From positions 1 to 32,070 of the forward strand of contig CAXBQP010000035.1 in NCBI GenBank assembly GCA_963978095.1: DNA of 32,070 nt, given 5' to 3'. A program made the position numbers. Origin of the DNA: an uncultured bacterium. GTDB lineage: Bacteria > Gemmatimonadota > Gemmatimonadetes > Gemmatimonadales > Gemmatimonadaceae. Positions 1 to 6,000 of this stretch are shown here, piece by piece. Position 1 is the first letter of the stretch. Each line of letters opens with the position of its first letter.

Positions 1-3000
1 AAGCTGGATCAATGTTCGGGCGTGAACCGTTGAATTGCTCCCTGAGCCTGTAGTAGTAGGCGGCCTTGTCATCTGATTCCCCGTACTCGGCTTGCAAGAC
101 CTTAAGTCGCCGATTGACTGCCTCCGGATCGGTCTTTACAGCAGCGAAGGTTGCGATGAGCTGACGGTTGATGTCTCCGAGTATTGCCGAGAAGGGTCGT
201 GTCTCGCGCCGTGCGAGATAGAAGAAAACGGAGCCGCCGCCAACAAAGGGGTCGATGTATTTTCCGTGAAACCGCGGCAGTATTCCGCCGTATCTGGCGA
301 GGAACGGTTGCTTTCCGCCTGCCCATCGAAGGAAGGGTTTCGCGCTGGAAACTCGGCGGACCCACGTGTCCAACTGGTTGTTGAAGGCGGTGTTACTATT
401 TGCCATTGAGCCTTAGTCCTGTTCTGACTGCGAGGGTGTCCGCATCGTACCCTTGGAAACGATTCGCTTTGGGTCGACCGATGTGCCGTTAGGTGTTTAG
501 GAGCGGTAGCTTTCACACCCCGCCACTTCTCGCGCGCGATAGACGGAGCGGCCTCTCGAATCAACTGCTTGACTTGAAGCAATGTACGCCGTTTGGGTTG
601 ACTCGGCGAGTATCACGCGGTTGCAGTAAGAGGCGGAATCGCGCTTGTGGTGTGCTTTACCGCCTGAACATCATCATCGCGGTTCTTGAGCGTTGGACCG
701 CGTGTTCTGTTAGTACTGCAAGAGGAAGCGCTGCAATTCCCGAGCGTCCTTCGTCTTCGTCAACGCCACCATCATCAATATGCGCGCCTTCTGCGGCGTC
801 AGATGCTGCACCGTCACCTGCGGCGCGAGCGGCGCCTGATCCGCCGCACCCGCTCCAGCAGCACCACCTGCCCCTGCCCCACCGCGTCCGCCTCCGGGGC
901 CGCCAGCAACCGGCGCCCCAGCCCCATCAAACCCACCGACCGCCGTCACGTTATCCCCCGACGGAAATGCCGTCGCCACAACCCCCCCAGCCCGCCGCAA
1001 CGCCAAGTACGGAGCCTGCTCCCCCCGCGAGAACCCAGTCGTCGCCACGACCACGCCAGCCGGCAGCGTATCAAACTTCACCCCCGTCCCCCCCGGATAA
1101 CTGAACGTCAGCTCCACCCGCGGCAACACACTATCCACCCCCGCCAGATCGAACTCGCTCTGACTCCCGTGGCGGCGCGTCGGGGAGAAGAAGAACTCCA
1201 CCCCGCTCCCGCTCACCACGCCGAGCATCCCCATCTCGCCGCCGCTAAACCCGCCCACGCGCTGGTAGTTCTTGCGCACCTCGCGCGCGCTGATGATCCG
1301 GTCGTCCATCACGACCATCACTCCCTTCCCCACCGCACTCGGCGCTGCCGCCGTGCGGACCGCTGCCAGCAGATTGATGGGGCCGTCGGGCGAAAGCCCC
1401 GTCGCCGGATGCTGCGCCCCCGTCACCACCACCGGCTTGTCGCTGCGCACCGTCAGGTACAGGAAGAACGCCGTCTCCTCGAGCCGGTCCGTGCCGTGCG
1501 TCACCACCACGCCGGCCAGATCCTTCCGCTCGCTCAACACCGTGTTGATCCTTCGGCTCAGCGCCACCCACTGCGCCGGCGTGATCGCGGTGCTCGCCAC
1601 GTTCGAGAACTGCTCGCTCTCCACCTCCGCATACCGCGGCAGCTCCGGCACGCTCGCAATGATCGCCTCGGCGCTCAAACTCCCCGCACGATACGCGCCC
1701 GTCGTGCCCGGCTGGTCCTGCGCCCCCGCGATGGTGCCGCCCGTCGCGATCACCAGCACCTTGGGACGGGGCCCAGCCGGGATCTGCAGCGGCACCGGCT
1801 GTGGCGCGCGCGGCGTACTCTGGATGCCGCCACCGATCGCACCCGTGGCCGCGACCGGCGCCGCGCCGGTCGTCACCGCAGGCGGCGAGGCGCATGCGCC
1901 GAGCCAGGCGAGAACGGCCAACGACATCACACACGAACGCACGAACCGTACGGCCATCTCGATCGCTCCGGCGGGTGGTATCACGACCATGTCATCTATA
2001 AGATGTGGAACTGCTCGTCCTAATATCCGACGCGCCCACGGCGTCCGCCAGCGTCGCACAATCTCTTGCGCGCCGCGTCAAGCGGGTGTATACTACGGGA
2101 GCATCAAGATGAGGGACGACCCTCGCCAACCTGCCCGCCCGGGTAAGGTGGATCCCGAAAGGGGATGCGGCCTCCGGCAATCTCACGGGCTGCGCGAGAC
2201 TCACCCTCCTCTGCATGCCAGATGGAGGGTTTTTCTTTTTCCGCCACGGTCGCGGCCCGCGACCGACACGTTCCACCAGCATCGCGAGTGAGGCGAACGC
2301 CTCCGCCAACCTCCCCGACCCGGGAAAGGTGGTCCCACCTCCCAAGGTGGCATGCGGCGCCCGGTACTTCCACCGGACGCAACCGAGCGGGTCTCGGCAT
2401 GGGAAATCGTTCGTGCTCCTCGCCCCACCCAGAGGAGTAGCCCATGACCGCCCCGCACAACATCTTCGCCCGCCTCGGACTCCACGGCTTCGAGCCCCTG
2501 GCTCCAGTCCTCCTCGCCGCGCTCGTGACCGAGGAACCCCTCCTTCTCCTCGGACCGCACGGCACGGCCAAGTCGCTCCTGCTCACGCGCACCGCCGCCG
2601 CCCTCGAGCTCAGCGCCCGGCATTACAACGCGAGTCTGCTCAACTTCGACGACCTCGTCGGATTCCCGATCCCCGGCAAGGACGGCTCCCTCGACTATGC
2701 CAAGACCCCGGCCGCGATCTGGGGGGCCGGTGCCGTCATCTTCGACGAGCTCTCCCGCTGCCGCCCCGAGATCCAGAACAAGCTCTTCCCCATCATCCAC
2801 GAGCGGAAAGTGCAGGGACTTCCACTCGAGGGACTGCGCTACCGCTGGGCCGCCATGAATCCCCCGCTCACCGACGAGAAGTCTCCGACGTACATCGGCA
2901 CCGAGCCGCTCGATGTCGCGCTCGCGGACCGCTTCGCGTTCGTGGTCACCATGCCGGACTGGAGCGCGCTCAGCGAGGCGCAGCAGATCGCCGTGATCCG

Positions 3001-6000
3001 CGCCACCGACCTGCCACTCGATCCAGGCATCGGTGAGGAGTTGCGCGCGGTGATCGATCAAGTACGTCGCGTCCGAGCGGCCATTGCGGAGCCCGTCGAA
3101 GCCGCGCTGGCGGACTACACGCGCACGGTCTGCGCGTTGGTCGCGCAGAGCGACATCACCCTCAGTCCGCGGCGCCGCGGCATCATCCTGCGGAACACCC
3201 TCGCCGTCATCGCCGCGGCGGCGGTGATTGCGCCGGATCTGGATATGGCGCGCTGCGCGCTGCTCACACTGCGCTCGTCACTGCCACATCTCGCCTCTGG
3301 CGAGGCGATCGACGATCGGAAGCTCGTGGCGTGCCACCGCGAGGCGTGGGCGGCGCATCCGTGCGCCGAGCTCCGCGAGATCGTCCTCCTGGCCGATCCG
3401 CTCGCGCGCTTCGAGGCCGCGATCGCCGCGCCGACCATCCCGTCGCGTGACTTCTCGTCGATCGTCGCTGACTGTCTCGCACGGATGCGCAGCGGCGAAC
3501 GCTACGCCTCGGCCGTGCACTTGTACGAGAGCAACGCGGCGAGCCGCCTGAACGTCGCCATCGCGGATCAGACCGCTCGCGCATTCAAGCAGATCATGGA
3601 GAATGAGGAACATGGTTTGCACGATGGACTTCAGCGTCATCAGGAGTACGCCGAACCCCTGGGGTATTTCCGCAAGCACGGACACGTCATCGAGCTTCGC
3701 GACGTCCTGTTCCTCGACCCCGATCAGCCGATCGACCTGCCGCAACAATGCGGGGCTGTCGGTCCTGAAGGCAAAGCACTGTTTCGCGAGGACCTGGTGT
3801 CGTTCATCACGGATTTTCGCGCGACCCGTGCGCGGCTCGCGGGGAGGGCCGCATGACGACCGCTTCGAACCTCGGGATCGACTGGCGGATCGTGCGGTTC
3901 AGACTGGACGATCGATTCGTCGGACTTTCGCCGGCCGAGTTGCTCGCCGCGCTCGGTCTCTCCGCCGGCGAGGATGCGGAGGCCTCGCTCCAGCGCATCA
4001 TCGAGCGGGTCGCAGCACAACTCACCCTTCCGGATGTCTGTCCCGTCGCGGATTGGACCAGGGCCATCCCCCCTCGTGACGAATTCGTGGAACCGCTCAG
4101 CGCGATCGCGGTCATGGCCAAGTCCTCGCCGCATGTGTGGGTGCGCAGCAAGCTCCCGTTGGTGCACGCGGCGAACGAACGTCATTCCGTGTCGCTCTTT
4201 CTCACCCCAGCGCAACGCCAGCGCTTCCGGCGGAGGGTGCCTCGTGTCACTGCTTGAACGGATCCTGAACTGTTTTCCCACCGGCCACTACGCGATCACG
4301 GCGTTCCTGCGCGTGGTGGACATCGTCGAAAGTCGTGACGTCCCGACGGCCGCCATCGAGAACAAGATCTCGCCGCGCATGCTCATCAACCCGGATTTCG
4401 TCGAGCAGCACGCCGAGACGCCGGAGAAATTGCTGATGCTGGTGATGCACGAATTGCATCACATGATGCTCGGGCACACGGTCTCCCACCCTCGGATCAC
4501 GCCGTTCGACAACTTCGTCTTCGATGCGGTCATCAATGGCGTGCTCTGCCAGATGTTTCCGACGCCAGCCTTCACCTCGCTCCTGACCGACTACTACTCG
4601 GAGTCGTTTCCCGAGTGTCTGTTACGCCCCCCTCCGGACTGGCCGGAACAGGGCGGCGTCGCCTTGGGGATCACCGCGTTGCGCGATCCGCGTCAGGTCA
4701 AGGCGGCGGCGGCCGCGCATCGCGGACTGTACTCGGAGGCTGGCTATTCCTACGCGGAGCTCTACGTGTTGCTCTCGTCCTTCGGTCTGGGTTCCGCGCC
4801 GGTCGCGGGGCGACTCCTCGGCGATCACGCGAGCGAGACCGAGCTGGTCCTGGAGAATTCACTGGCGGAGATCGCCGCGGATTTCGGCTCGACCTTCGCT
4901 GAAGAGTTCCCGCACATCTGGACGGACGAGGTGTACATGCGGTACGAGAGACGCGGGACGGCGATGGCTCCGGTCGAACGGATCGTCAAACCGCGGACGA
5001 ACCACCGGAACCGGGCAGCGCTCCGGCGTCTCTTGTCGCGGATCGCACGAGGTGGACGAGGCGGCACCCAGCGGATCATGGACTGGACGGCCCGACCGGT
5101 GGAGCAGGCGATGCCGACCATGGACCGTCGTGCCTCGGTGCAGCGCCTGCTCGGACACCAACCGCTGCTCCATTGGGACGAACGCGTGGCACGGCGCGCG
5201 AACTGTCCCGGCGAGCGGGTGCACGTGTATTTCGATGTTTCGGGCAGCGTCTGGCATCTGCTCGAGGAACTCTACGGCGCCCTATTGGACGTGGAGGCGG
5301 ATGTGCACCCTGTCGTGCATCTGTTCTCGACGCAGGTCTACGATATGCCGATCGAGCGGTTCCGTCGGGGGGCCATGCGCACTTCGCTCGGGACCGAGAT
5401 CACCTGCGTCGCTCGCCATATGGCCAAGTTCGACGTGCGCCGAGCACTGATCGTGACGGACGGCTTCACAGATTCCCCGAGCGGTCGCGATCTGGCCGTC
5501 ATGCGCCGCGCAACCCTCGGCGTCGCCGTCATCAAGGGCGAGCAATGCCAACGTGACTTGGAAAAGGTCGTGGACTTCTGGGGGTTCCTGGAGGTCGATC
5601 CCCCCGTCGCGGCGAGCGCGTGAACGACGATGACGGACCCTATGGATGTTCGCGCTGTCGCCAACACCCTCCCCAACAACTTGTGGACGCATCAAAAAAT
5701 ATTATGATATTGGATAATATTTATGAAAATCATCGTGAGCACCGCTGCCCTAGCGCTCGGGGTCTCCCCCACTCGGCTCCGTCTCTTCCTCTCCCGACAC
5801 GGCCCCCACTTGGCCGGAGAACCGTCGGCACGCCGCCAAGGGCGCCGCCGCCCCATCCCGGAGCAGGCGCTCGAACCACTCCTCCTGGCCTTCCTCCTCG
5901 CCCGCGACCTCCGGATCCCGGATGGACCCGCCCTTCAGCTCGCCGAACGACTGCTCAAGGCCGACTCCGCTGCCAGCCCACAGAAGTCCGTCGGAGCCGG

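Follow-up and report, generated by a model that had tools for sequence, protein, structure and literature searches.

Why should an operon for a MoxR-class ATPase, a small protein and a von Willebrand factor A (VWA) protein stand behind two S-adenosylmethionine (SAM) riboswitches? The operon lies in the window, the whole stretch of 32,070 nucleotides that was analysed (GCA_963978095.1, contig CAXBQP010000035.1, positions 1–32,070, + strand), which comes from an uncultured Gemmatimonadaceae bacterium. Searches covered the genome (2.98 Mb, 101 contigs, 91% complete), 80 loci with relatives of the operon from at least 10 phyla, and a sample of 400 Gemmatimonadales genomes. By analogy with known systems, we propose that the relatives encode an activase or maturase that is induced by SAM starvation and serves a dedicated SAM synthetase; here it is present without that client. 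Our probability for this reading is about 45%. The literature searched contains no description of such a SAM-riboswitch MoxR/VWA/MetK-like system. The interpretation of the operon given in a preliminary description is supported, and its checkable elements were all reproduced, mostly with stronger numbers.

Table 1. Positions of the leader elements and genes of the operon in the window
Feature	Position	Strand	Basis or remark
Putative promoter, TTGCGC - 17 nt - TATACT	2067–2095	+	Read by eye; ends one base upstream of aptamer 1
Aptamer 1, SAM-I/IV "type a" (RF01725)	2096–2194	+	Rfam cmscan, 46.8 bits, E 8.9e-5, full model length
Intrinsic terminator: bulged stem-loop (2204–2229) and T run (2230–2240)	2204–2240	+	Minimum-energy fold
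Aptamer 2, SAM-I/IV "type b" (RF01725)	2274–2396	+	Rfam cmscan, 43.9 bits, E 3.8e-4, full model length
Predicted translation platform	2397–2446	+	Helix burying Shine-Dalgarno (SD) sequence and start codon
MoxR-class AAA+ ATPase, 470 aa	2444–3856	+	Pfam AAA_5, 37.8 bits (cut 22)
Module-specific small protein, 134 aa	3853–4257	+	Start overlaps ATPase stop; no family
HExxH-domain and VWA/MIDAS protein, 459 aa	4244–5623	+	Motifs in alignment A1; predicted structure
Usual MetK-like place, empty here	5624–6146		No tblastn match

Searched in full with cmscan, the window has two Rfam matches at gathering score and no more, both SAM-I-IV, with the coordinates and scores previously assigned to the tandem aptamers. 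They exceed the RF01725 gathering cut of 41.1 bits by just 5.7 and 2.8 bits, and among the SAM-I/IV matches of all loci the window scores are the lowest but one. Both could thus be marginal chance matches, with the operon not regulated by SAM. We consider this highly improbable. The two matches lie immediately ahead of the operon and on its coding strand, no other RF01725 match exists in the 2.98 Mb, and their E-values over the whole genome are 2.0e-6 and 8.3e-6. Across 362 nt the leader shares 80% identity with the tandem leader of a same-genus locus (L002), and riboswitches of the same classes, SAM-I/IV, SAM-I or SAM-II, occur at gathering score on the coding strand upstream of the homologous operons at 36 of the 47 loci whose upstream flank is 300 nt or longer. 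The nearest relative of aptamer 1 is the first aptamer of L002; the subtype of aptamer 2 is common to the second aptamers of L002, L067, L014 and L025. Compensatory changes are found at 12 of 21 consensus pairs in an alignment of 30 aptamers. The earlier statement that the genome has only these two SAM riboswitches stands at gathering scores (RF00162 has zero matches across the whole genome), but two SAM-II (RF00521) matches elsewhere, at 35.3 and 33.5 bits, fall slightly below the cut of 36. One of them sits immediately upstream of metF-metH, where at least one further riboswitch, of the SAM-II type, is likely.

Among the relatives, two aptamers in a row occur at nine loci, in line with the earlier claim of three SAM riboswitch classes, partly in tandem. 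The remaining 11 of the 47 loci have weaker SAM-like leaders: four show correctly placed sub-threshold SAM-II matches, and seven have SAM-like leaders by eye or by weak model scores. Most of the loci previously counted as riboswitch-less thus have sub-threshold or divergent SAM-type leaders. Control by SAM belongs to the design of the module.

The expression platforms point in the same direction. The terminator claimed after aptamer 1 is present as a stem-loop and T run (Table 1), which a simple terminator scan overlooked because the stem is bulged, and a CCCUCC...GGAGGG hairpin with a U run also lies 3' of the first aptamer in L002, L067, L014 and L026. Aptamer 2, as had been described, lies just before the ribosome site. 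In the predicted fold of its platform the anti-SD sequence GCUCCUC (2415–2421) pairs with the SD sequence GAGGAG (2432–2437), and CAUGGG (2398–2403) pairs with CCCAUG (2441–2446), start codon included. The fold of 2268–2460 has a z of -2.38, with equally good folding in 2 of 200 shuffles, and the CUCCUC / GGAGG / AUG arrangement recurs in L002, L067, L014 and L025. Both platforms are found again in relatives of other phyla. On the other side, no pairing that would act as antiterminator or anti-sequestor came to light, and the minimum-energy folds, computed without ligand, contain both the terminator and the SD helix. Transcription probably starts immediately upstream of 2096; the putative promoter there was not flagged by a consensus promoter scan, and its first hexamer matches at only 3 of 6 positions.

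Since an intrinsic terminator follows aptamer 1, most transcripts would end near 2240 when SAM is present. Those that read through would bear aptamer 2, whose platform may bury the ribosome site and start codon. With two successive checkpoints, one of transcription and one of translation, expression would need low SAM at both. Judged from its sequence, we take the predicted SAM repression of the operon to be real. The available text of PMC9481103 describes a similar order of control in Candidatus Pelagibacter ubique, where tandem SAM-II/SAM-V "bi-mechanism" riboswitches pair a first sensor that has a terminator with a second that controls the ribosome site. Unlike these, both aptamers of the window are SAM-I/IV, of two conserved subtypes. 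The tandems listed in that text are SAM-I, SAM-II, SAM-II/SAM-V and mixed SAM-II with SAM-I/IV; a SAM-I/IV homotandem is not among them, and the word ATPase is absent from it.

The three-gene composition of the operon was found as described (Table 1). The ATPase has a Walker A motif (GPHGTAKS, aa 37–44) and a Walker B motif (VIFDE, aa 98–102), its best PDB sequence match is a midasin AAA module (E 0.0011), and it matches PHROG ATPase and CobS-like families. Searches of Pfam, NCBIfam, PADLOC and PHROGs place the 134-aa protein in no family. Its homologues lie between the ATPase and VWA genes at 51 of the 80 loci by tblastn and at 67 by ORF clustering, and they form 264 representative clusters, nearly all shorter than 260 aa (one has 339 aa). 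Its AF2 model is confident (pLDDT 89.6, pTM 0.84) and has no fold match in the PDB (Foldseek best E 0.53, VIA best Z 2.5).

The 459-aa protein carries HELHHMMLGH (aa 69–78, with HELHH at 69–73), DVSGS (aa 331–335), T384 and TDG (aa 405–407); the HExxH and MIDAS columns are invariant in alignment A1. It falls below every Pfam cut-off, with no VWA call and DUF2201_N at E 0.014; among 25 family members, DUF2201_N is found in 22 and VWA_CoxE in 20. Against PDB sequences, the A1 profile gives nothing at E<=1. The predicted structure, however, reveals a VWA fold whose top Foldseek match is NorD in NorQD (9qhe_G, E 1.1e-4), with further NorQD structures listed (9qhd, 9qh8, 9qh6); VIA on this domain gives Z 10.7 and rmsd 2.5 for 126 aligned positions (residues ~320–453). 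A NorD-like VWA domain with a DxSxS MIDAS motif, as claimed before, is confirmed by this model.

Three known systems resemble the operon. The "putative metallopeptidases" that combine DUF2201_N (PF13203) with VWA (PF05762 / PF09967) and are paired with MoxR share the two-domain architecture, whereas the present branch is linked to SAM riboswitches and to a MetK paralogue. These Pfam families have no known function, and the literature mentioning DUF2201 holds nothing relevant. The CbbQ-CbbO Rubisco activase consists of a MoxR AAA+ ATPase and a VWA/MIDAS adaptor. In both cases the genes of a MoxR-class ATPase and a complete-MIDAS VWA adaptor neighbour that of a single metabolic enzyme, and the proposed logic is ATP-driven remodelling of a dedicated client. 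Here, in contrast, the client would be a MetK-family enzyme, the adaptor has an additional N-domain with the invariant HExxH, a small third subunit is always there, and the whole unit is under SAM riboswitches. NorQ-NorD is alike in its NorD, to which the C-terminal domain has its closest structural match, and in the AAA_5-type ATPase; it differs in that no nor genes lie near the window operon, sequence similarity is undetectable, and the N-domain and small subunit are different. No counterpart of the invariant HExxH is known in CbbO or NorD, which counts against the activase reading.

The relatives suggest what the client may be. Over the 80 loci, the only conserved genes are those for the ATPase, the small protein, the VWA protein and a MetK-like protein, with DUF3293 at 14 loci. 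The relatives' module is these four to five genes, and the window keeps the machine part. The order ATPase-small-VWA is retained wherever flank permits, and the MetK-like gene follows directly at 71 of the 74 loci with downstream flank; the gene order given earlier is thereby reproduced, and its count of 39 in 44 loci is raised. S-AdoMet_synt domains are present on 54 of 63 downstream ORFs. Identity among the MetK-like proteins is 50–77% across phyla, and they share 28% with the MetK of this genome. They keep the catalytic motifs GHPDK, PDGK, GGP.GD.GL(S/T)G.K and GGGA.SGKD..K.DR, and a conserved acidic loop replaces the usual gating-loop segment. SAM riboswitches (S-box, SAM-II, SAM/SAH and others) classically control metK. 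Unlike those metK genes, this divergent paralogue always stands behind three machine genes, coexists with canonical MetK in 3 of 4 genomes checked, and is absent from the window. The order sample has the MetK-like gene (E<=1e-60) in four genomes, every one adjoining the VWA gene, and in 0 of 393 genomes without a VWA match.

Under low SAM, we suggest, the cell would produce a second SAM synthetase and, with it, an activase or maturase driven by ATP. The MetK-like enzyme would be held at the MIDAS site of the VWA protein and remodelled by the ATPase, while the N-terminal, zincin-like HExxH domain may process the enzyme or handle a metal. Parallels to such a scheme would be CbbQ-CbbO, which serves Rubisco, and NorQ-NorD, which serves NO reductase. 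The idea of a maturation machine finds support in the confinement of the MetK-like gene to its neighbourhood in the order sample and in the accelerated evolution of the VWA protein and ATPase in the four loci without that gene (see below). SAM synthetases are not known to depend on chaperones, which counts against a maturase. A SAM-gated machine joined in the relatives to an extra SAM-making enzyme points to an undescribed back-up system for the main methyl donor.

Characterised MoxR-VWA pairs, such as NorQD, CoxDE and the chelatases, often load metal cofactors. The machine might instead insert or repair a metal in another methionine or SAM enzyme, for example zinc- or cobalamin-dependent methionine synthase, the MetK-like protein being a co-regulated neighbour and not the client. 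The structural match to NorD, an HExxH..GH motif that could bind metal, the ATPase's similarity to a phage CobS-like family and the persistence of the trio without MetK-like in four loci would fit this role, which we nevertheless regard as quite unlikely. Across the 80 loci neither methionine synthase nor any further met gene is conserved, the large chelatase subunit is absent, and the order sample never shows MetK-like without the machine. At L047 a cobalamin riboswitch does lie beside the SAM riboswitch, but on the opposite strand.

The module occurs in 243 of 185,579 species genomes, in 7 of the 400 genomes of the order sample (by VWA match) and in 1 of 11 other genomes sampled from the genus, and its flanks vary, without synteny even to the same-genus locus L002. 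Patchy spread and unconserved flanks would suit a SAM-depletion stress or defence module. Its riboswitches would sense attack on the SAM pool, for instance by a MetK inhibitor or a SAM lyase from a phage, the MetK-like protein would be an inhibitor-insensitive spare, and the MoxR/VWA/HExxH machine would strip or degrade the inhibitor from MetK, which would account for a trio that persists without the spare enzyme. Consistent with this, the ATPase scores 26 bits, just short of the cut of 27, with bpMoxR, a model for ternary systems of the conflict type, an AbiE toxin-antitoxin pair adjoins the operon beside the empty MetK-like place, phage families (PHROG) are known for all three larger proteins, and DUF3293 weakly resembles SAM lyases (S-AdoMet_lyase, E 0.0048). 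That last match is under the cut-off, however, and no stretch passes alone; PADLOC matches none of the five module proteins, the VWA protein has zero matches in 50,697 phage and 72,556 plasmid records, and no toxic domain of the effector kind is present in the module. Metabolism is what SAM riboswitches normally control. A defence role is unlikely in our estimation. The DUF3293 likeness also fits a SAM-making role poorly and speaks against a maturase.

As stated in the preliminary description, the MetK-like partner is missing here: tblastn with 28 sequences (27 MetK-like and one canonical MetK) detects no remnant in the window, and the genome has a single canonical metK. An ORF at 5620–6249 is of low complexity and without family, and contigs from four other metagenome runs cease to match the window near 5760–5770. 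With the client missing, local function follows only at second order; the machine probably acts here on something else, the housekeeping MetK being the simplest candidate.

Alternatively, the operon could be a decaying remnant that lost MetK-like, its three genes drifting and its riboswitches relics. Its VWA protein is 43–48% identical to relatives that are 48–89% (median 58%) identical to one another, has the longest terminal branch of 69, and lacks a VR..VE.WPQPPDPI.GRS block that is nearly invariant in most relatives and also degenerate in several loci retaining MetK-like; the low riboswitch scores would agree with decay. Yet all three genes have open frames, their products retain both Walker motifs, HExxH..GH and a complete MIDAS set, and the aptamers match at full length with both platforms kept. 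The stretch was found again in 14 runs of 10 studies. Contigs from 4 runs of 4 studies have zero indels in coding regions, and the 17 coding SNPs among those listed show a synonymous excess (10 synonymous, 7 non-synonymous). Decay thus appears decidedly improbable, and the three proteins, which have diverged fast, look selectively maintained, with all catalytic motifs kept.

The pattern of divergence speaks for a coupling of machine and MetK-like protein. The four loci without MetK-like, window included, occupy separate positions in the VWA tree, and their terminal branches rank 1, 3, 4 and 6 of 69, at 0.98–1.30 vs a median of 0.32, lengths that also reflect sparse sampling. For the ATPase (n=53), L047 ranks first and the window second. 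Long branches are found as well in L046, L026 and L023, which keep MetK-like, an observation that runs against the maturase reading.

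The operon of the window is headed by two predicted SAM riboswitches of the SAM-I/IV class, which stand in tandem on the coding strand and are each matched over the full length of the Rfam model (RF01725, positions 1–99 of 99). These aptamers are the only gathering-score Rfam matches in the 32,070-base window by cmscan. Across the whole assembly (2,977,764 bases in 101 contigs, 91% complete), RF01725 matches the same two places, with E-values of 2.0e-6 and 8.3e-6, and none besides; RF00162 has no match anywhere in the assembly. The preliminary description took them for all the SAM riboswitches that this genome has, which holds at gathering scores but overlooks two SAM-II (RF00521) matches lying just below the cut. 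One of these precedes metF and a metH-type gene, and this putative riboswitch is very likely functional. The genome therefore appears to use two SAM riboswitch classes.

Both window aptamers contain the core elements GCAUC..AGA, CCAACC, AAGGUGG, GAUGCGG, GCAA and a 3' CGGG, and they represent two different subtypes, either of which also occurs in Alpha- and Gammaproteobacteria. In the underlying alignment of 30 operon-linked SAM-I/IV aptamers, compensatory changes are found at 12 of the 21 consensus pairs. We regard it as very improbable that the window's scores reflect chance RNA matches.

Analysis of the sequence downstream of each aptamer revealed two candidate expression platforms. The hairpin that follows aptamer 1 (2204–2229) is part of the minimum-energy fold, and a simple terminator scan did not flag it (2204–2240). 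Aptamer 2 is followed by a predicted helix that takes in the ribosome site and the start codon of the ATPase gene; the fold of 2268–2460 has a z-score of -2.38, and an equally good fold arose in 2 of 200 shuffles. A CCCUCC...GGAGGG hairpin with a U run also lies 3' of the first aptamer in the same-genus locus L002 and in the loci of relatives L067, L014, and L026, and a CUCCUC/GGAGG/AUG helix lies 3' of the second in L002, L067, L014, and L025. By these sequence comparisons, both platforms are conserved in distant relatives. Because ligand-free competing pairings could not be identified in the window leader, we infer the switching step. The tandem would provide 'bi-mechanism' control, in which a transcription checkpoint is followed by a translation checkpoint. 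One paper describes such a transcription-then-translation layout for a SAM-II/SAM-V tandem (PMC9481103); the SAM-I/IV pair of the window is predicted to have this layout.

Coordinates of features in the window, elsewhere in the same genome, and in loci of relatives (L numbers)
Feature	Location	Strand	Details
Asparaginase gene	710-2059	-	upstream of operon
SAM-I/IV aptamer 1 (RF01725)	2096-2194	+	46.8 bits, E 8.9e-5 in window cmscan; gathering cut 41.1
Candidate intrinsic terminator	2204-2229 and 2230-2240	+	bulged stem-loop, then run TTTTTCTTTTT; starts ten bases past aptamer 1
SAM-I/IV aptamer 2 (RF01725)	2274-2396	+	43.9 bits, E 3.8e-4 in window cmscan; gathering cut 41.1
Predicted SD/AUG helix	2397-2446	+	GCUCCUC with ribosome site GAGGAG; CAUGGG with CCCAUG (start codon inside)
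MoxR-class ATPase, 470 aa	2444-3856	+	AAA_5 (PF07728), 37.8 bits, cut 22
Small protein, 134 aa	3853-4257	+	no family assigned
HExxH and VWA/MIDAS protein (P0003), 459 aa	4244-5623	+	invariant motifs, predicted VWA fold
Low-complexity ORF	5620-6249		no family
AbiEii toxin and AbiEi/DUF6088 antitoxin	6147-7874	-	toxin PF08843, 135 bits; converge on operon end
MvaI/BcnI-type restriction endonuclease	30765-32018	-	
SAM-II (RF00521), below cut	contig 41: 19678-19752	+	33.5 bits, cut 36; directly 5' of metF (MTHFR) and metH-type gene
SAM-II (RF00521), below cut	contig 27: 15356-15430	-	35.3 bits, cut 36; 5' of panB-like gene
DUF3293 gene	L003:2913-3344, L004:3093-3524, L012:367-798, L014:3191-3649, L058:3136-3567, L072:3430-3858		
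DUF3293 gene after MetK-like gene	L020, L021, L077		
Candidate planctomycete leader	L039:3914-4060, L051:3878-4007, L041:3710-3824, L053:1978-2098, L056:3051-3171		
SAM-II/SAM-V-like pseudoknot leader	L040:3889-3947, L009:229-286, L030:340-397		before ATPase gene

In the operon, an ATPase of the MoxR class is paired with a NorD-like MIDAS adaptor, whose gene begins 388 nt 3' of the ATPase gene. The ATPase carries a Walker A motif (GPHGTAKS, residues 37–44) and a Walker B motif (VIFDE, residues 98–102), and its top sequence match in the PDB is the AAA module of midasin (E 0.0011). In its partner, the 459-residue protein P0003, residues H69, E70, H73, G77, H78, D331, S333, S335, and D406 are invariant across 25 family sequences and T384 is nearly so, which leaves the MIDAS set DxSxS...T...D (D331, S333, S335, T384, D406) complete. 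The AlphaFold2 model of P0003 has a mean pLDDT of 74.8, with values of 84–94 across most of residues 330–450. Foldseek placed NorD of the NorQD complex first (9qhe_G, E 1.1e-4, probability 1.00) and also returned MIDAS domains of MDN1/Rea1, and structure alignment over PDB chains with VIA matched residues 323–451 to integrin I domains (Z 10.7, RMSD 2.5, 126 aligned residues). The C-terminal domain is therefore predicted from its model to adopt a Rossmann-like VWA fold of the NorD/CoxE kind. P0003 itself has no match to a Pfam VWA family at E<=10, and VWA_CoxE is found at E<=0.01 in 20 of the 25 family members.

The N-terminal HExxH domain has no structural match because VWA matches occupy the result lists of both Foldseek and VIA. 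The sole Pfam match of P0003 is to DUF2201_N (PF13203; 15.4 bits, short of the cut of 23.2, with E 0.014), a family matched by 22 of the 25 members with a best E-value of 2.6e-6, and the domain is a candidate zinc metallopeptidase of this type. No relevant literature was found on DUF2201, and a profile of the P0003 family gave no match among PDB sequences.

The small protein encoded between these two genes matched nothing in Pfam, NCBIfam, PADLOC, or PHROGs. Its AlphaFold2 model, computed from a 40-sequence alignment, has a pLDDT of 89.6 and a pTM of 0.84. No similar fold was found by Foldseek against the PDB (best E 0.53) or by VIA among 48,161 chains (top Z 2.5), and a search of the ESM Atlas with the model yielded only scores of 0.87 to unnamed clusters. 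Its profile retrieved 264 clusters from 1.84 billion representatives, nearly all shorter than 260 residues and one of 339.

Relatives of P0003 are widespread: at least 1,294 of 8,000 candidates scored reach E<=1e-3. Counting a single genome for each species, we found 243 stretches that encode a relative and analysed 80 of these loci, which by their record titles come from Proteobacteria, Planctomycetota, Acidobacteriota, Chloroflexota, Gemmatimonadota, Verrucomicrobiota, Nitrospirota, Latescibacterota, Actinobacteria, and others. In 65 of the 80 loci the ATPase gene precedes the VWA gene; upstream flank in the remaining 15 does not exceed 1,875 nt. ORF clustering revealed just five families common to the loci, namely the VWA protein (74), the small protein (67), the ATPase (66), a MetK-like protein (66), and DUF3293 (14); flanking genes showed no conservation among the 80 loci.

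A MetK paralogue with complete catalytic motifs is, by sequence, a constant neighbour of the machine in relatives. In tblastn searches, 71 of the 74 loci that have any downstream flank show a MetK-like gene whose start falls at -193 to +165 nt relative to the VWA stop codon, and the gene is missing from L040, L047, and L073 alone; the window likewise lacks it. S-AdoMet_synt N, M, and C domains were detected with modest scores on 54 of 63 downstream ORFs, and solved MetK chains are matched over the full length (E 2e-34). The motifs GHPDK, PDGK, GGP.GD.GL(S/T)G.K, and GGGA.SGKD..K.DR are invariant in 28 sequences and common to the MetK of the window's own genome, which places the paralogue in the MetK family. 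Identity is 50–77% between phyla and 28% to the own-genome MetK, and a conserved acidic segment, GPLEDGEAEFR, replaces the segment ahead of the DQ motif. Of four carrier genomes that have the paralogue, three also contain a canonical MetK (about 231 bits). In the 1.6-Mb assembly of a Chloroflexota (G403, the source of L026), the module paralogue, at 65.7 bits, is the sole MetK-family match; a canonical MetK did not turn up there, so the paralogue may be its sole SAM synthetase, or the assembly may be incomplete.

DUF3293 (PF11697, 65–78 bits) forms a fifth module gene in 14 of the 80 loci, located either between riboswitch and ATPase gene or 3' of the MetK-like gene. The family is absent from the window's own genome, its profile met chance rows only among PDB sequences (E>=0.53), and no literature on it was found. 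One DUF3293 copy has a weak, below-cut match to S-AdoMet_lyase (E 0.0048). At E<=0.01 none of the five module proteins matches the defence models of PADLOC-DB 2.0; we consider it unlikely that the module serves in SAM-depletion stress or defence. Phage MetKs are ordinary and at most 33% identical, and the phage and plasmid records searched hold no counterpart of the VWA protein.

We scanned 55 loci at gathering score, of which 47 contain the ATPase start and at least 300 nt of upstream sequence. A SAM riboswitch lies upstream on the coding strand in 36 of these 47: SAM-I/IV only in 22, SAM-I only in 11, one of each in two, and SAM-II in one, where the aptamer is 3.6 kb upstream. Two aptamers occur in nine loci. 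In several loci a DUF3293 gene intervenes before the ATPase gene and so places the riboswitch 0.65–1.15 kb upstream. Two riboswitches with a whole gene between them occur in L062 (a histone-deacetylase-family gene, 2744–3685) and in L014 (the DUF3293 gene), so that each may gate its own cistron. L080 has an extra SAM-I/IV aptamer (7360–7471, + strand, 50.4 bits) ahead of another gene, 2.7 kb 3' of the MetK-like gene. In L047, which also lacks the MetK-like gene, a cobalamin riboswitch (3068–3257, - strand, 108 bits) stands back to back with the SAM-I/IV aptamer of the operon (3383–3488, + strand), and the two control divergent genes.

Among the 11 loci with no gathering-score match, SAM-II scores below threshold in the right position in L006, L008, and L038 (25.6–27.9 bits), and L030 has such a match of 21.3 bits. 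The leaders of L009 and L040 show by eye the pattern GAUUU..CUUGC..GCUAAAG. These two and L030 carry SAM-II/SAM-V-like pseudoknots, of which Rfam gives a score to that of L030 and none to those of L040 and L009. Five further loci of the 11, all from Planctomycetota, have a common structured leader directly 3' of a promoter-like site. It comprises GCAUC..AGAG, GCAACCGAG, CGGUGC, and GAUGCGG, has four to five helices, and resembles the core of the SAM-I clan, and may be a divergent SAM aptamer variant. Rfam returned nothing at E<=1 for these leaders (23.5 bits for L053, with E 7.3 in a small search). Our own covariance model R1, built from the 30 SAM-I/IV aptamers, put L039 at the top of its search with 16 bits (E 0.074) and gave L053, L056, and L041 10–11 bits; since unrelated places score equally and L051 was missed, these scores are no proof of an aptamer. 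With the low Rfam score of L053 and R1 scores at noise level, this class is a lead rather than a finding. SAM-type control, as predicted from sequence, accompanies the module almost everywhere and in at least three aptamer classes, which suggests that the job of the module concerns SAM.

The distribution of the paralogue within the order of the window's host points to a connection between machine and paralogue. The VWA protein occurs in 7 of 400 other genomes of the order, and MetK-like proteins (E<=1e-60) occur in four of the 400, with the VWA gene adjoining in all four; none was found in the 393 genomes that have no VWA protein. In this sample, then, the paralogue is never seen without the machine, whereas the machine is sometimes seen without the paralogue. 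A machine that loads metal into another enzyme would be an alternative occupation for it, one that we hold to be improbable. The four MetK-less loci (the window, L040, L047, and L073) take four separate positions in the VWA tree. With lengths of 1.30, 1.06, 1.05, and 0.98 (the median is 0.32), their terminal branches rank 1, 3, 4, and 6 of 69 (p 1.4e-5 in a one-sided rank test); three loci that retain the paralogue have equally long branches, and sampling density also lengthens branches. In the ATPase tree, the window and L047 rank 2 and 1 of 53. These long branches support the coupling of machine and paralogue and do not amount to proof. Prediction of a complex of the VWA, small, and MetK-like proteins of L061, with an alignment for each, gave 0.00 in both runs and is uninformative either way. 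Loss of a WPQPPDPI block was considered as a mark of the MetK-less loci and set aside; it is not diagnostic because the block is also degenerate in L026, L039, L046, L048, L051, L052, and L057, which keep the MetK-like gene.

The universal methyl donor is SAM, whose synthesis by MetK is, to our knowledge, regarded as a one-enzyme step that needs no helpers. The action proposed for the machine is modelled on that of CbbQO and NorQD, the systems with which we compare it. By this analogy, SAM starvation would switch on the machine, which would then activate, mature, or recycle the MetK paralogue. We tentatively propose, at a probability of roughly 30%, that the module is an undescribed kind of activase: a machine of MoxR AAA+ ATPase, VWA-HExxH protein, and small subunit that works for one special isozyme of SAM synthetase alone and is on only in SAM starvation. 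It would have been transferred through at least 10 phyla, always under the SAM riboswitch class of the host, including the SAM-I-clan-like planctomycete leader and the SAM-II/V-like leaders missed or under-scored by Rfam. In the window, the machine would have been kept and re-aimed, for example at the housekeeping MetK encoded on contig 13, after loss of its client.

The riboswitch class, the tandem logic, the MoxR–VWA pair, and the MetK fold are of known kinds; their combination and the implied client are new. A search of the openly accessible literature brought up no description of the operon, of a connection between it and SAM riboswitches, or of a MetK paralogue associated with MoxR, and no paper tying a SAM riboswitch to MoxR. 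The accessible parts of PMC9481103, PMC4239095, and PMC2864571 (the last with eight supplementary files covered by term search) do not mention such an operon, and papers that name MoxR together with metK appear unrelated by their titles and the openings of their abstracts.

In the module, an ATP-driven MoxR/VWA machine and a second MetK-family enzyme are coupled under predicted SAM riboswitches. We know of no substrate for most MoxR chaperones; if our proposal is true, they would gain a new class of client, and abundant freshwater and soil lineages an extra layer of SAM homeostasis. The module would also show cleanly how a single regulatory logic has been rebuilt from at least three aptamer classes, and the leaders missed by Rfam may extend the SAM-I and SAM-II families. 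Handles for experiments are one cultured carrier, the Limnohabitans isolate of L058, the invariant Walker, MIDAS, and HExxH residues, and the 134-residue subunit, which combines a confident model with no known fold.

The window's own copy allows decay of the operon in this genome to be weighed. Its VWA protein is the most divergent, at 43–48% identity to relatives that are 48–89% identical to one another (median 58%), and no MetK-like gene was found after the VWA gene in the window or, at the thresholds used, in the genome. A recurring weak tblastn match at 28153–28398 (- strand, E 0.005) was rejected as a MetK-like remnant; it lies inside a GH127 glycosidase gene and was taken as chance. Identity to L002 amounts to 80% across 362 nt in the leader, 77% in the 5' portion of the ATPase gene, and 46% between the VWA proteins, and the flanks have nothing in common. 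The operon stretch was recovered in 14 DNA runs from 10 studies, mostly of freshwater. Contigs from four runs of four studies match it at 95–100% with no indels in the coding regions, and among the coding differences listed, at least 17, ten are synonymous and seven non-synonymous. All motifs are retained, so that by its sequence the copy is not obviously dead and decay appears improbable.

The same contigs end or diverge near 5760–5770, which indicates that the region 3' of the VWA gene is strain-variable. An AbiE pair adjoins the gap (5624–6146) in which relatives have the MetK-like gene. Beyond it, 8237–32018 is ordinary chromosome with ispG, an HD-domain gene, a DsbA-like gene, hisD/hisC/hisA-F/hisB, two M16 peptidases, an M24 peptidase, and the GH127 glycosidase.
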